This document shows positions 21,376 to 25,314 of a DNA stretch of 64,000 nt, one piece after another. Under the pieces are notes generated by a model. The model did no database searches and was not told where the DNA came from. It saw only the letters and a program-made list of their open reading frames with translations. The position numbers and the translations under genes are program-made. The DNA comes from Deinococcales bacterium (GTDB lineage: Bacteria > Deinococcota > Deinococci > Deinococcales > JAAFIG01): contig JAYWGM010000072.1 in the NCBI GenBank assembly GCA_043778225.1, positions 1 through 64,000 of the forward strand. Reading direction: 5' to 3'. Each line of letters opens with the position of its first letter. Position 1 is the stretch's first letter.

Positions 21376-21431
21376 CTTAAACAACCAGAAACAGTCAAAA
21401 CCGTTTCTGGTTCTTGTGAGCAGTTTTTAGC

Positions 21432-21992
21432 TTATGGTGCTATAAAAAATCCAAATCCCGCTTCAACTGGAAGACACTCAGCTTGATTCTTAAAATCTGT
21501 CTGTCCCGCCAATAGACGGCATATCTGAACCACAATGATTGCTGATTTATTTGTTGCAGTTGGCTTTACACCCTTTAAGCTAAAGGATTGAGTAATTGTG
21601 TCTGTCTTTGGGTCGACAACTATTTTTACTCGAGGAGCAAGCCTATCTGTACCTTGTGCTGGATTGAGAAACTCTAACTCTTCTGCTATTGGAAAATTTT
21701 CAGGAGTCCTAATACAAGCGTTGCTTGCAACAGTTGCATTAGGTACACCCCCACCAAATGCTTTCTGGTCACAAAAGACTAGAAAGACGGAATTTTTCGC
21801 ATCTCTAAATTCGGCGGCGAATGCAGACCCATTTGGATAGTAGCTGCTAAGATTGAACTCAAAGTTACCAGTGGCTGTATCCCCAACACGAGTAATTTGC
21901 TTATCAAATGTGATACTTGCCAGTGGGAATTTTTCACACGAGACAAATCCTACGCTTGCTACTGCCAAAAGAGCCGATAAAATCTTTTTCAT
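21432..21992 (-). CDS. Hypothetical lipoprotein
   Basis: MKKIL..GFVSC lipobox; AT-rich relative to neighbours. Confidence 0.75.
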   Translation of the reverse strand: MKKILSALLAVASVGFVSCEKFPLASITFDKQITRVGDTATGNFEFNLSSYYPNGSAFAAEFRDAKNSVFLVFCDQKAFGGGVPNATVASNACIRTPENFPIAEELEFLNPAQGTDRLAPRVKIVVDPKTDTITQSFSLKGVKPTATNKSAIIVVQICRLLAGQTDFKNQAECLPVEAGFGFFIAP

Positions 21993-22037
21993 ATTTACCC
22001 CGATACTTGTTGCAGGCGTATAGTAGTTCTCTCACGC

Positions 22038-22108
22038 GGGTGGGTACAAGACCCACCCCTACGTTTGGAACATGGTTTTTCGTAGGGCGCGACCCTTGTG
22101 GTCGCCCT
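22038..22108. repeat. Pair of inverted GTAG-type REP palindromes
   Basis: gggtgggt-acaag-acccaccc-ctac and gtagggcgcgacc-cttgt-ggtcgccct. Confidence 0.7.
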
Positions 22109-22330
22109 GTTTTTGTAACGTAATGGACTTATGTAAGAGGTCTATTCTATCTGCTATTCAAGATAAAAAGTGATGTACACAAAATTACTTTTTATGGTCA
22201 TACATAATTACGAAATCTCAACAAAGGGTCTGGCATTCGGGGTTTCTCAAGACTCGAGTGCGAATAAAAGTTTGCTGGGGTTTTGCAAAGAAATCAACAA
22301 AAGCCCATCAAAAGAGTTGGCTACTTTCAA

Positions 22331-22456
22331 TTATCGGGAAGTGATGCCACCACCGCCACCACTACCACCGAGATGTGATTCTGGATTTGCAAATCCGATC
22401 GAGAAAAAACCACCAATTGCCATCAATGCCACAACAAACCGAATTACTTTTTGCAT
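22331..22456 (-). CDS. 41-aa secreted Gly-rich peptide MQKVIRFVVALMAIGGFFSIGFANPESHLGGSGGGGGITSR
   Basis: AGGAGG RBS ~5 nt before ATG; Sec-type signal peptide ending GFA; below ORF-track cutoff. Confidence 0.75.
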   Translation of the reverse strand: MQKVIRFVVALMAIGGFFSIGFANPESHLGGSGGGGGITSR

Positions 22457-22502
22457 AAGAGCCTCCTAAATACCTTTGTGGCAAAAAGTTATTGTTTGGC
22501 TG

Positions 22503-22557
22503 CTGAACAAGTTCTGATAAGTTACTGAACAAGCACTGAACAAGCACTGATAACGTG
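22503..22557. promoter_or_regulatory. Five direct repeats with exact 11-bp period (candidate SARP-type operator)
   Basis: CTGA at 22503, 22514, 22525, 22536, 22547 (ctgaacaag / ctgataag). Confidence 0.7.
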
Positions 22558-22571
22558 TATACTTGGACAAT

Positions 22572-24515
22572 ATGGGGCTCCATCCTTTACACAACCTGAT
22601 TTTGGATGGACAAGAAGGCAAAGCCCTCGAACTGTATCAGGCACTGAGTACACCAGATGCACCAGATGACCGTTGGGCTGGATGTGCTTTGTTGGCACTC
22701 AATCAGCCCTTAAAAGCCAAAGATTTATTGATTCGAGCAGTGGCTCGAGGTTGCCTTGCAGCACGCACTGAATTGGCTGCTGCATATCGTATTTTGGGTG
22801 AACATCAACACGCCCATAGCGAAATAGAAGCCGCTATTTTAGACATACCCATAGAGTTTATTGCAAACCATACCGAAGCGAATCTTAACCGCGCCTTGTT
22901 ATTGCATGAATTGGCAATCCAGCAACAAGCCTTAGGAGACCAAGAAGGAGCATTAGAAACGCTTGAAATAGCTTGGGTAGCGACTTTAAGCTACTATGAG
23001 TTATCACGATTGCGCTGTGGTATCGCACAGGTTCAAGCTCATATCTATATGAACCAACGCCGCTATGCTCGAGCCGAATACCACTTTACTACTGCGCTAG
23101 AAAGCAATGGTGTTCCCGCTCGGGCGGCTCGAGTCTTACTTAATCGAGCCTATTGTCATTTGTACCAAAGCGACTACACAAGCGCCCAGCACGACCTTGA
23201 TTTGGTGCGCCAAAAACTGGGCTTTGTGCCAAGTTTGGCTGCCAACCTCGAGTATGTGGTTGGCGTGGTCAATCGCGCACTGGGGCATTGGTCGTTGGCA
23301 ATTGCGGCATTTGAATTGGCTTCGAGCATTGCCCGTAAAAACGAAGATTTGGATGTGGCTTTTCATGCTGAACTGTGCTTGGCAGCTTGTCAGACAACCC
23401 TCGAGCGTTTTGAAAATGCCGAAATGCACTTGGCTCGAGCCAAGAAAATCAAAAACCTTTCGGTACGCGATACCGCCTTTCTCGAGTGGCGTTCGGGGCA
23501 GGTATTGAGTCCAACCAACCCAAAACAAGCCTTGGAGCATTTAGCTCGAGCCAAAACTGCTTTTGTACAACTGCATATGCCACGCGAACTGATTGGTGTG
23601 TTTTTGCATTTGTGCAATGCGTATCTGTATTTAGCCGACTCAGAGTCAGCCCTTGATGCCTTACAAGCTGCCGCCCATATTGCTTTTGAAAGCGAAGACG
23701 GCACAGCCTTACTTGAACTGAGCGGCTTACCTCGAGTCCAACAACTCTTAAAATCAGATGCTCCCGCCCCTTGGCGCAAAGCATTGATGCCAAACACCTC
23801 GCTTGTCGTTCCAAAAGTTATTCAGTCTATTCAGTTGGTCACGCTGGGGGCAGTCGAACTTAAAGTTGACGGCAACGGGCTTTACTTGCGGATGAACCGC
23901 ACCGTTGAAATTATGGCTTATCTGTTAAAAAATCCGAACATCGGCATCGAAAAAATCCTTGTCACTTTATTCGCCGACATAGACCCTCGTAAAGCCAGTA
24001 ATTATTTTCATAAAGCCCGTCAGATGTTAAAAGTCGCCACCAGTGCAATCTGGATTGATTTTGATAGCCACAAAAAAACCTATGCCGTCAAAACCCACGC
24101 CAATTTATACTGGGATGCACAAGCCATTCAGCAAATTCTCAGCACGGCTGAGGATAATAAAATCATCAGCGCAATCAGTGCTTACGCTGGTGAATTCTTA
24201 CCCACCGCCAGTTGCGAATGGGCTATCGAGGAGCGCGAAGCCTTGGCATGGAGCATCATCAAAGTCGGACTCGAGACGCTGCAACGCTGGTACGAAAGCG
24301 GCGAGCATCAAAAGTGCTTGTCTTTAGCCCATCGGCTGCTCGAGATTGACCCATTCAACACCGCGATTCACGAATTTATTATCAACACCACGCTCTCGCT
24401 CGAGGGTGAATTGGCAGCCAAGCGCGAATTATTACGCGCCAGCCGCCGTTTTGTCGAGAATTTTGGTGAAGTCCCGATCGAATTTGACCGTTTACGCAAT
24501 ATGCTCTTAAATTAA
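22572..24515 (+). CDS. TPR-repeat + wHTH-BTAD transcriptional regulator
   Basis: N-terminal TPR helices; LVTLG, YAGEFLP..CEWAIEERE, LLEIDPFN; TATACT at 22558-22563. Confidence 0.85.
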   Translation: MGLHPLHNLILDGQEGKALELYQALSTPDAPDDRWAGCALLALNQPLKAKDLLIRAVARGCLAARTELAAAYRILGEHQHAHSEIEAAILDIPIEFIANHTEANLNRALLLHELAIQQQALGDQEGALETLEIAWVATLSYYELSRLRCGIAQVQAHIYMNQRRYARAEYHFTTALESNGVPARAARVLLNRAYCHLYQSDYTSAQHDLDLVRQKLGFVPSLAANLEYVVGVVNRALGHWSLAIAAFELASSIARKNEDLDVAFHAELCLAACQTTLERFENAEMHLARAKKIKNLSVRDTAFLEWRSGQVLSPTNPKQALEHLARAKTAFVQLHMPRELIGVFLHLCNAYLYLADSESALDALQAAAHIAFESEDGTALLELSGLPRVQQLLKSDAPAPWRKALMPNTSLVVPKVIQSIQLVTLGAVELKVDGNGLYLRMNRTVEIMAYLLKNPNIGIEKILVTLFADIDPRKASNYFHKARQMLKVATSAIWIDFDSHKKTYAVKTHANLYWDAQAIQQILSTAEDNKIISAISAYAGEFLPTASCEWAIEEREALAWSIIKVGLETLQRWYESGEHQKCLSLAHRLLEIDPFNTAIHEFIINTTLSLEGELAAKRELLRASRRFVENFGEVPIEFDRLRNMLLN

Positions 24516-25135
24516 GAGCCGATGTATTTTTCCCAAGCGATGTCGAGTTTTGGCGCTTGTCCATAGGCGGTCGAAAAGACAAATTTAGGTGCAAATGGCT
24601 CGCGGATGAGCTTCATTTTGGCTTCGTATGGGGTGCGGTCGCGCTTTTTGCTGTTGCATTCGCGGCAAGCTGTAACGATATTTTCCCAAGAGTTGCGTCC
24701 GCCTCTCGAGCGTGGTGTAACATGGTCAAGCGTTAAATCGCCACCGGGTTTACCACAAAACTGGCAAACATGGTTATCGCGGCGAAAAACATTGCGGCGG
24801 TTAAAAGCGATATGAAAACGCGGTGGGCGCTTGACGTATTTCATCAAGCGAATTACGCTTGGAACTGGAATTTGGGTGCTTGGCGAGTGCAAAAAAGCAT
24901 CTTCTTTGTCTTCGATTCGCATCGCAATATCCGACATTAAGAGTGTAATCGCCCGTTTGATGCTGCAAACGTGCAATGGCTCGTAGGAGGCATTTAAGAC
25001 AAGCACCGTCGGCGCATTGAGGTTAATACCTCGAGTACGCGACGGCGCTGATTCATCATCAGGCGGCGCTACTATGTCTGGTTCTTGTTCCTCGAACAAT
25101 TCCTCGAAGGTATGTTGACGCTTTACTTTCGGCAT
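24512..25135 (-). CDS. HNH endonuclease (McrA-like)
   Basis: VLVLNASYEPL, RDNHVCQFCG, LTLDHVTPRSRGG, NIVTACRECN. Confidence 0.92.
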   Translation of the reverse strand: MPKVKRQHTFEELFEEQEPDIVAPPDDESAPSRTRGINLNAPTVLVLNASYEPLHVCSIKRAITLLMSDIAMRIEDKEDAFLHSPSTQIPVPSVIRLMKYVKRPPRFHIAFNRRNVFRRDNHVCQFCGKPGGDLTLDHVTPRSRGGRNSWENIVTACRECNSKKRDRTPYEAKMKLIREPFAPKFVFSTAYGQAPKLDIAWEKYIGS

Positions 25136-25314
25136 GATGACACTCCACTCGGCGCGGGCAAACGCACCATAAATTCTCGAGCAAAGATGCTGTGGCTCGA
25201 GTGACCTCATTGTACATCAGACTCGAGTCTAAGTTCATGTGCCAATTGGCGGATTAGAGCAACAAAAAGGGCTTACCGTAGCAAGCCCCCACAACCGCGA
25301 ACATGGTGTTGGTT

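Follow-up and report, generated by a model that had tools for sequence, protein, structure and literature searches.

The 64,000-nucleotide (nt) stretch analysed here, referred to throughout as the window, is contig C72 (JAYWGM010000072.1, positions 1 to 64,000) of the 4.03-Mb, 107-contig genome of a Deinococcales bacterium (GCA_043778225.1). Between positions 22331 and 24515 it carries two divergent genes with back-to-back starts, one for a 41-amino-acid (aa) peptide with signal-peptide features and the other for a 647-aa regulator that joins a sensor of the TPR type to a SARP module; a 115-nt spacer separates the two open reading frames (ORFs). This pair is a strong candidate for peptide cell-to-cell signalling outside the Firmicutes. 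Its features are as follows:

22331..22456, minus strand: pre-peptide gene, 41 codons plus stop (ORF, translation, conserved position and layout, codon-position bias)
22462..22467, minus strand: Shine-Dalgarno sequence AGGAGG (CCTCCT on the plus strand), 5 nt upstream of the peptide ATG
22503..22557, plus strand: five tandem 11-bp direct repeats of the CTGAACAAGnn type, predicted SARP operator (repeat search, sequence)
22558..22563, plus strand: -10-like hexamer TATACT, immediately behind the last repeat, with the regulator ATG 8 nt further on
22572..23786, plus strand: TPR-type, all-helical sensor domain of the regulator, residues 1-405 (AlphaFold 2 model, TPR Pfam matches, VIA-align)
23826..24515, plus strand: SARP module, residues 419-647 plus stop, an OmpR-type winged helix followed by a BTAD domain (model, Foldseek, Pfam)

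The 41-aa product begins with MQKVIRFVVALMAIGGFFSIGFA and ends with NPESHLGGSGGGGGITSR; a basic n-region, a hydrophobic core and the residues G-F-A followed by N-P give it the layout of a signal peptide, so that residues 1-23 are signal-peptide-like, with a predicted signal peptidase I site at G-F-A/N-P and a predicted 18-residue, Gly-rich tail terminating in ITSR. An alignment of 22 peptides from this and related loci reveals a common plan, consisting of Met, Lys or Arg, a hydrophobic core, A-x-A, [DNE]-[PG] and a Gly-rich tail, in which only Met1, the Ala at -1 and one tail Gly are invariant; the -1 Ala (Ala23 here) is kept in 22 of 22 sequences, with [DNE]-[PG] following and small residues at -3. 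Read from these alignment features, the n-region, the h-region and the small residues at -3 and -1 are those expected of a Sec-type signal peptide. The preliminary description of this DNA had proposed a 41-aa ORF with a strong ribosome-binding site, a signal peptide and a mature part; both the AGGAGG site and the conserved layout bear this out, and GGAGG-type sites likewise precede the orthologous peptide ORFs.

Nucleotide differences between peptide genes, counted at codon positions 1/2/3, amount to 10/6/17 for the window and locus L007, 15/10/30 for L012 and L013, and 12/5/28 for L022 and L027; because they concentrate at the third position, the peptide ORF is taken to be a translated gene under coding selection. 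The exact 41-aa sequence is present, without a name, in the protein collection, and therefore at least one gene caller predicted the ORF. Seven of ten peptides that were looked up are present there, as "hypothetical protein" where they are named at all, and one of them, that of the orthologous locus L023, belongs to Deinococcus petrolearius. Pfam and NCBIfam searches of the peptide gave no match.

Conservation of the peptide-regulator pair

The regulator was searched against 201 genomes of the same order with a threshold of E <= 1e-20, and matches were obtained in 64 of them, up to six within one genome. A match was found in 17 of 18 other genomes of the window's own family, and in none of the sampled genomes of family f4 (0/23) or genus g9 (0/28). 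At E <= 1e-30 the regulator family comprises 449 representatives of clusters at 50% identity, and most of the best 150 of these 449 are full-length. In the Atlas, the nearest regulator clusters fall in Deinococcota; look-alike TPR-plus-BTAD clusters occur in Chloroflexota, Pseudomonadota and Actinomycetota. The Atlas taxa and the D. petrolearius peptide both support Deinococcota as the phylum.

Two sets of loci from other genomes were inspected for peptide genes: 29 stored orthologous loci (L007-L035) from other Deinococcales genomes, and 34 further paralogous matches (L036-L069) for which 700 nt upstream were retrieved. An ORF passed the strict peptide filter if it encoded 25-85 aa, had a Shine-Dalgarno word, carried Lys or Arg among residues 1-9, contained a hydrophobic 12-mer and an [AG][DNE][PG] site located between positions 15 and 34, and if Gly made up 25% or more of the 15 residues after that site; a looser filter demanded a Shine-Dalgarno word, a basic n-region and a hydrophobic core. 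Small signal-peptide ORFs do stand beside homologous regulators, where the preliminary description had suggested that they be sought. Under the strict filter, a divergent ORF lies 84-325 nt upstream of the regulator in 16 of the 29 orthologous loci; four more (L015, L022, L025 and L027), judged by eye, show the same layout with one criterion missed, so that a divergent exported-peptide ORF is found in 20 of 29. The paralogous loci add 22 of 34, ten by the strict filter and twelve by the looser filter together with inspection by eye, and the pairing in other genomes thereby comes to 42 of 63 loci. The looser filter has a background of 0.062 matches per kb per strand in this genome and of 0.024 in the downstream flanks of the loci; given these rates, about 1.5 of the 34 paralogous loci would be expected to show a match by chance.

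Within the window's own genome, the strict filter yields two matches in all 4.03 Mb, and each lies divergent beside a TPR-SARP paralogue. The second match, C80:29538-29642, is divergent from a full-length paralogue, and a divergent signal-peptide ORF, located 51 nt upstream, also accompanies the third TPR-SARP paralogue (contig C15, L003); all three TPR-SARP paralogues of this genome (3/3) are accordingly preceded by a divergent peptide ORF. For the SARP-only (L004) and receiver-SARP (L005) paralogues of the same genome, no adjoining peptide ORF was found. The conservation of the arrangement, together with the codon evidence, rules out a chance ORF.

The loci without a divergent peptide ORF are of several kinds. 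Three (L028, L035 and L055, the last with 143 nt) offer too little upstream DNA to judge; a strict match at L035 was excluded, being the same ORF as in L050 and belonging to the neighbouring tandem paralogue. At L021 a similar small ORF lies downstream of the regulator instead, no peptide ORF was seen upstream at L029, L030, L031 and L033, and the same is true of 12 of the 34 paralogous loci, L055 included. At L026 and L032, insertion-sequence-like ORFs lie upstream of the regulator. By eye, one of these is IS1 InsA-like and the other IS200/TnpA-like, and they occupy the usual place of the peptide gene; judged from their sequence, the two loci look like disrupted cassettes.

The peptide tails differ between groups. 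Among close relatives of the window they end in G-I-T/A-S/P-R/K/H-(P); in other groups they end in PPxxCxxC, ANGLPSxxGGK, GGGGLPGG or IGGPIGG, or contain GGGGW. Peptides with tails ending in CGN pair with regulators of the L022/L027 type, and the L041 regulator groups with L027, L028 and L022; tails of the ANGLPSxxGGK type pair with C80-type regulators (the ANGLPS peptide is that of L058), and the regulators at loci with PPxxCxxC peptides have N-termini that best match the C15 paralogue. In these sequence comparisons, peptide tail types follow regulator subfamilies. Two peptide genes occur at a single locus in three cases (L010, L049 and L069).

Regulator domains and intergenic repeats

The regulator ORF spans 22572-24515 on the plus strand. 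An alternative ORF start exists at TTG 22563, and the start is placed at ATG 22572 on account of the database copy, which has 647 aa, and the alignment of orthologues. Its N-terminus has no hydrophobic segment, and as a DNA-binding protein the predicted regulator must be cytoplasmic. Pfam detects only TPR_2 in the window's own regulator, with BTAD at E 0.063; across 30 aligned family members, BTAD (PF03704) is found in 25, with a best value of 3e-13. An HTH_3/XRE match is found neither in the regulator nor in the family members. The family profile matches the winged helix of EmbR at E 1e-4. An AlphaFold model from the 30-sequence alignment (mean predicted local distance difference test, pLDDT, 91.6) folds residues 1-405 into 23 helices, which are followed by a short disordered linker, three strands, three helices, a beta wing and finally seven helices.

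Residues 417-647, modelled alone with a pLDDT of 95.5, were matched by Foldseek to AfsR (8k60 and 8hvr, both AfsR transcription-initiation complexes by the titles of their PDB entries; E 3e-8 to 9e-8, TM-score 0.69-0.75) and to EmbR (2ff4 and 2fez, E 2e-6 to 1e-5); matches ranked below these have E values around 1e-2. The model identifies the C-terminus as a SARP module of winged helix plus BTAD. The earlier assignment of N-terminal TPRs and a winged-helix-BTAD output to this regulator has thus held, since BTAD recurs in 25 of 30 family members and the fold is that of AfsR and EmbR.

With the SARP family of the AfsR, EmbR and ActII-ORF4 type, the regulator shares the winged-helix plus BTAD fold, for which these four entries are the best PDB matches. 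It differs in the order of its domains: the module is C-terminal here (419-647 of 647) and the sensor comes first, in contrast to classical small, medium and large SARPs, whose module is N-terminal, with NB-ARC and TPR domains after it. No ATPase domain is present here, and a peptide gene accompanies the regulator. A C-terminal SARP behind an N-terminal sensor also characterizes the COG3947 receiver-SARP response regulators described from Deinococcus, for example Deide_19260 (PMC3564903). These belong to the same phylum, and one such protein is encoded in the present genome (L005); their sensor, however, is a CheY-like receiver, not a TPR domain, and no adjoining peptide gene was found.

The N-terminal domain was compared with known structures in two ways. 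Foldseek on the full-length model returned generic TPR proteins only. VIA-align placed RapI at the top (Z 28.8, root-mean-square deviation 3.3 Å, 337 of 359 residues aligned), with the other Rap proteins at Z 25.6-27.5, among them RapJ with peptide (27.5), Rap of phage phi3T with its pheromone (27.2-27.3) and RapF with peptide (26.4); NprR scored 25.2 and 23.0, AimR 21.1-22.7, and consensus TPR proteins about 21. In the model, the N-terminal 375 residues superpose best on the Rap/NprR/AimR group, roughly tied with LGN and MalT, and the predicted sensor is of the same fold class as the RRNPP receptors over its whole length. MalT and other LAL-type regulators, with their TPR-like sensor domain III, are a further point of comparison, and Pfam TPR_MalT is matched in 7 of 30 family members; MalT, however, has an ATPase domain and a C-terminal LuxR-type HTH, senses maltotriose and has no paired peptide gene. 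A complex prediction for TPR residues 1-412 with the 41-aa pre-peptide scored 0.02 against a mark of 0.32, a result that counts neither way.

The repeat array fills the space between the two divergent genes. No Shine-Dalgarno sequence lies between TATACT and the regulator ATG, and the regulator mRNA is for this reason predicted to be leaderless. The pattern CTGA-N7-CTGA-N7-CTGA has seven matches on both strands of the genome, three of which, overlapping, are at this site. In L007 and L008, three or four CTGA-type units at 11-bp spacing precede TATAAT or TATACT, with the ATG 8-9 nt further on; other clades have different repeat words at the same place (CGTATTGGG in L014-L016, GGTTTGG/GTTTAGG in L022 and L027). 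A periodicity test over 22 intergenic regions, which is crude, gave period 11 the highest mean score, 11.5 as against 8.3-9.4 for other periods; compared with shuffles, period 11 exceeds the 95th percentile in L001, L007, L008 and L015, and period 12 does so in L016 and merely reaches it in L014.

SARP activators bind as tandem protomers on direct repeats, in place of a -35 box, and the adjoining of 11-bp-period tandem direct repeats to a -10 hexamer is also the arrangement of the AfsR initiation complexes. The array is accordingly predicted, from its sequence and position, to be a SARP-type operator in which the repeats stand in place of the regulator's -35 box. A weak TAACTT lies 29 nt before the peptide ATG; if this is the -10 of the peptide promoter, the leftmost repeat unit would tentatively occupy its -35 position. 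In some clades there are hints of translational control: at 6 of the 21 loci (L009-L012, L019 and L020), a CCUCC-type word further upstream pairs with the peptide Shine-Dalgarno to form a stable hairpin (z below -2), whereas the 5' region of the window's own peptide has no hairpin occluding the Shine-Dalgarno (z -0.6).

Arrays of three CTGA-type units with 11-bp spacing were also noted at two other places in the genome. At C80:60904-60933, on the minus strand, the array stands 76 nt upstream of an MqnA-type menaquinone-biosynthesis gene, with a gene for an AAA_21/AbiEii-like ATPase next in line; at C25:35777-35802, on the plus strand and at a contig end, it precedes the SARP-only paralogue by about 100 nt. 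Both are candidate extra operators.

A candidate signalling circuit and competing explanations

The favoured interpretation, to which a probability of roughly 55% is assigned, is that the two genes form an RRNPP-like, autoinducing peptide circuit whose output is a SARP domain. The Sec pathway would export the 41-aa product, and signal peptidase I would cleave it behind the invariant Ala23; this would release the 18-residue Gly-rich peptide, which further trimming might reduce to the conserved C-terminal G-I-T-S-R portion. The released peptide would accumulate outside the cell and, at sufficient concentration, be taken up again; the genome has 14 genes for oligopeptide-type binding proteins (SBP_bac_5), which are only a necessary condition for re-import. 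Inside the cell, the peptide would bind the groove of the Rap/NprR-like TPR domain and switch the C-terminal SARP domain, the direction being activation or release. The SARP domain, in turn, would recognise the 11-bp direct repeats before the regulator's -10, reaching into the divergent peptide promoter; since the array would drive the regulator gene and probably the peptide gene, the circuit would be self-amplifying.

The closest precedent is found in the RRNPP(A) quorum-sensing systems of Bacillota, their phages and their plasmids (Rap-Phr, NprR-NprX, PlcR-PapR and AimR-AimP), which likewise consist of two genes, one for a Sec-type propeptide of about 40 aa and one for a cytoplasmic TPR receptor. 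The sensor of the window superposes on RapI, RapJ, RapF, phage Rap, NprR and AimR over about 330 residues (Z 21-29), and several diverged cassettes per genome, with occasional duplicated propeptide genes, are a further point of likeness. The differences are substantial: the output is a C-terminal SARP here, and an N-terminal XRE-type HTH or a phosphatase/anti-activator surface there; the present systems occur in Deinococcota, have Gly-rich peptides and show only generic TPR similarity at the sequence level, and their peptide binding and import are predicted. Both the effector architecture and the taxonomic range that define RRNPP(A) therefore differ from what is found at this locus. The preliminary description had proposed precisely such an RRNPP-analogous system with a SARP output in Deinococcota; the proposal is upheld as regards the pairing, the domains and the Rap/NprR/AimR-like fold, whereas for export, processing, re-import, binding, the effect on transcription and its sign, and targets beyond the cassette, we infer the corresponding steps.

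Several findings weigh against an autoinducing circuit. No peptide ORF is detectable at 21 of the 63 loci, and 11-nt periodicity is significant in only about six of the 22 intergenic regions. MalT domain III and LGN both reach Z 27.0 in VIA-align, compared with 28.8 for RapI; since these scores are not clearly separated, the fold is no proof of peptide binding. At the sequence level the TPR matches are generic: the family profile detects NprR at E 4e-7 and Rap at E 4e-5 to 2e-3, each over one TPR stretch and ranked among generic TPR proteins. Finally, the conserved adjacency would be equally expected if the peptide gene were the main target of the regulator.

This last point leads to the most serious of the alternatives, which is judged unlikely and still deserves consideration: the peptide may be only a regulated, secreted product that is never sensed, with a role outside the cell, for example in the envelope, in the matrix or as an antimicrobial, while the TPR-SARP protein senses a metabolite, a protein partner or a nucleotide. 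The adjacency and the shared intergenic repeats fit a regulator with a dedicated target just as well, and SARPs are classically pathway-specific activators of adjacent genes, as described for the family (PMC10972967). The structural comparison is relevant here, in that domain III of MalT, a small-molecule sensor, ties with the Rap matches. Against this alternative, the predicted mature peptides have about 10-25 residues and no modification, immunity or export genes nearby, unlike known secreted effectors; the repeats face and abut the regulator's own -10, not that of the peptide; and both the co-diversification of tails and regulators by subfamily and the duplicated peptide genes are typical of signal-receptor pairs.

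Quite improbable is an action of the small protein inside the cell or at the membrane, either as an uncleaved signal anchor or as a pre-peptide in the cytoplasm, tethering or inhibiting the regulator, in which case the pair would report secretion load or the state of the membrane and not cell density. The hydrophobic segment could anchor in the membrane, and a cytoplasmic regulator with a protein-binding TPR domain would be a suitable partner; however, the invariant -1 Ala, the small -3 residues and the polar [DNE]-[PG] point to cleavage by signal peptidase I, an anchor with its N-terminus inside would leave only about six residues in the cytoplasm, and the conserved, subfamily-specific part of the peptide is its C-terminal tail, which would then lie outside the cell. 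That the small ORF is the precursor of a ribosomally made, post-translationally modified peptide, under a cluster-situated SARP activator, is very improbable: some peptide subfamilies do end in CxxC or contain Cys, and SARPs often control natural-product clusters, yet beside the pair there is no conserved gene for modification, transport or immunity, the flanks differ between clades, and the leader is of the Sec signal-peptide type and not a recognition leader.

Genomic surroundings and significance

The genes around the pair vary. Flanking ORFs beyond the peptide gene match each other only among close relatives, and a conserved gene downstream of the peptide was rejected as a candidate for this reason; because gene neighbourhoods vary between clades, the two-gene cassette is taken as the conserved unit. 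A lipoprotein-like gene at 21432-21992, which the preliminary description had considered as a possible target, has no counterpart at any orthologous locus, and what lies beyond the peptide gene differs from clade to clade; its candidacy as a target was rejected. The only neighbour that is shared at all lies on the other side of the regulator:

24512-25210, minus strand: 232-aa HNH endonuclease-domain protein, convergent with the regulator, the two reading frames overlapping by 4 nt

Only the closest orthologous locus shares this protein, with 87.5% identity.

A hairpin after the lipoprotein stop (21380-21415, AACCAGAAACGG...CUGUUUCUGGUU; z -3.9) is a likely terminator by its sequence; the hairpin after the peptide gene is no better than shuffles (z -0.4), and no terminator is claimed there for that reason. 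A 48-nt repeat after both minus-strand genes was considered as a widespread element and rejected by blastn-short. Between the lipoprotein and peptide genes, a 123-nt stretch (22022-22144) has a copy with 94% identity on contig C51, and its GC-rich hairpin core, GCGACCCTTGTGGTCGC, is also present on four more contigs; given these copies on other contigs, it appears to be a small dispersed repeat. As to short words, CTCGAG is 26.7-fold over-represented, with 24,877 copies in 4.03 Mb, a mean spacing of about 162 bp; the window holds 410 of them (for example at 23128-23133, 23430-23443 and 23541-23554); several 6-bp palindromes are nearly absent from the genome (GGGCCC, one copy; GACGTC, one; AGGCCT, one; GGCGCC, three).

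Peptide pheromone systems with cytoplasmic TPR receptors are regarded as a speciality of the Firmicutes. Term searches of two surveys of RRNPP systems (PMC10075063, PMC9765709) showed Firmicutes only and no mention of Deinococcota; a full-text literature search found no paper on a cassette of TPR-SARP regulator and peptide, or on peptide quorum sensing in Deinococcota. The wider proposition, held tentatively and at somewhat less than even odds, is that RRNPP-style cytoplasmic sensing is not confined to Bacillota, and that Deinococcales possess large, anciently diversified sets of private peptide channels, each coupling a Rap/NprR-like sensor to a SARP activator. Whether the peptide is the ligand can be tested directly, since cultured species such as Deinococcus petrolearius carry the cassette and the predicted signals are short and unmodified.

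If the peptide is the ligand, this signalling logic would reach a further phylum and be combined with a different output domain, joining Firmicute pheromone receptors with actinomycete antibiotic activators, and the pair would represent the first peptide quorum-sensing system in the Deinococcus-Thermus lineage. Synthetic circuits could draw on the family for orthogonal peptide-receptor-operator parts. A count of at least 449 clusters at 50% identity would then indicate the extent of the Deinococcales peptide-channel family, and the circuit would account for the many "BTAD/TPR hypothetical regulators" in Deinococcus, in its Meiothermus-sized relatives and in other kin.

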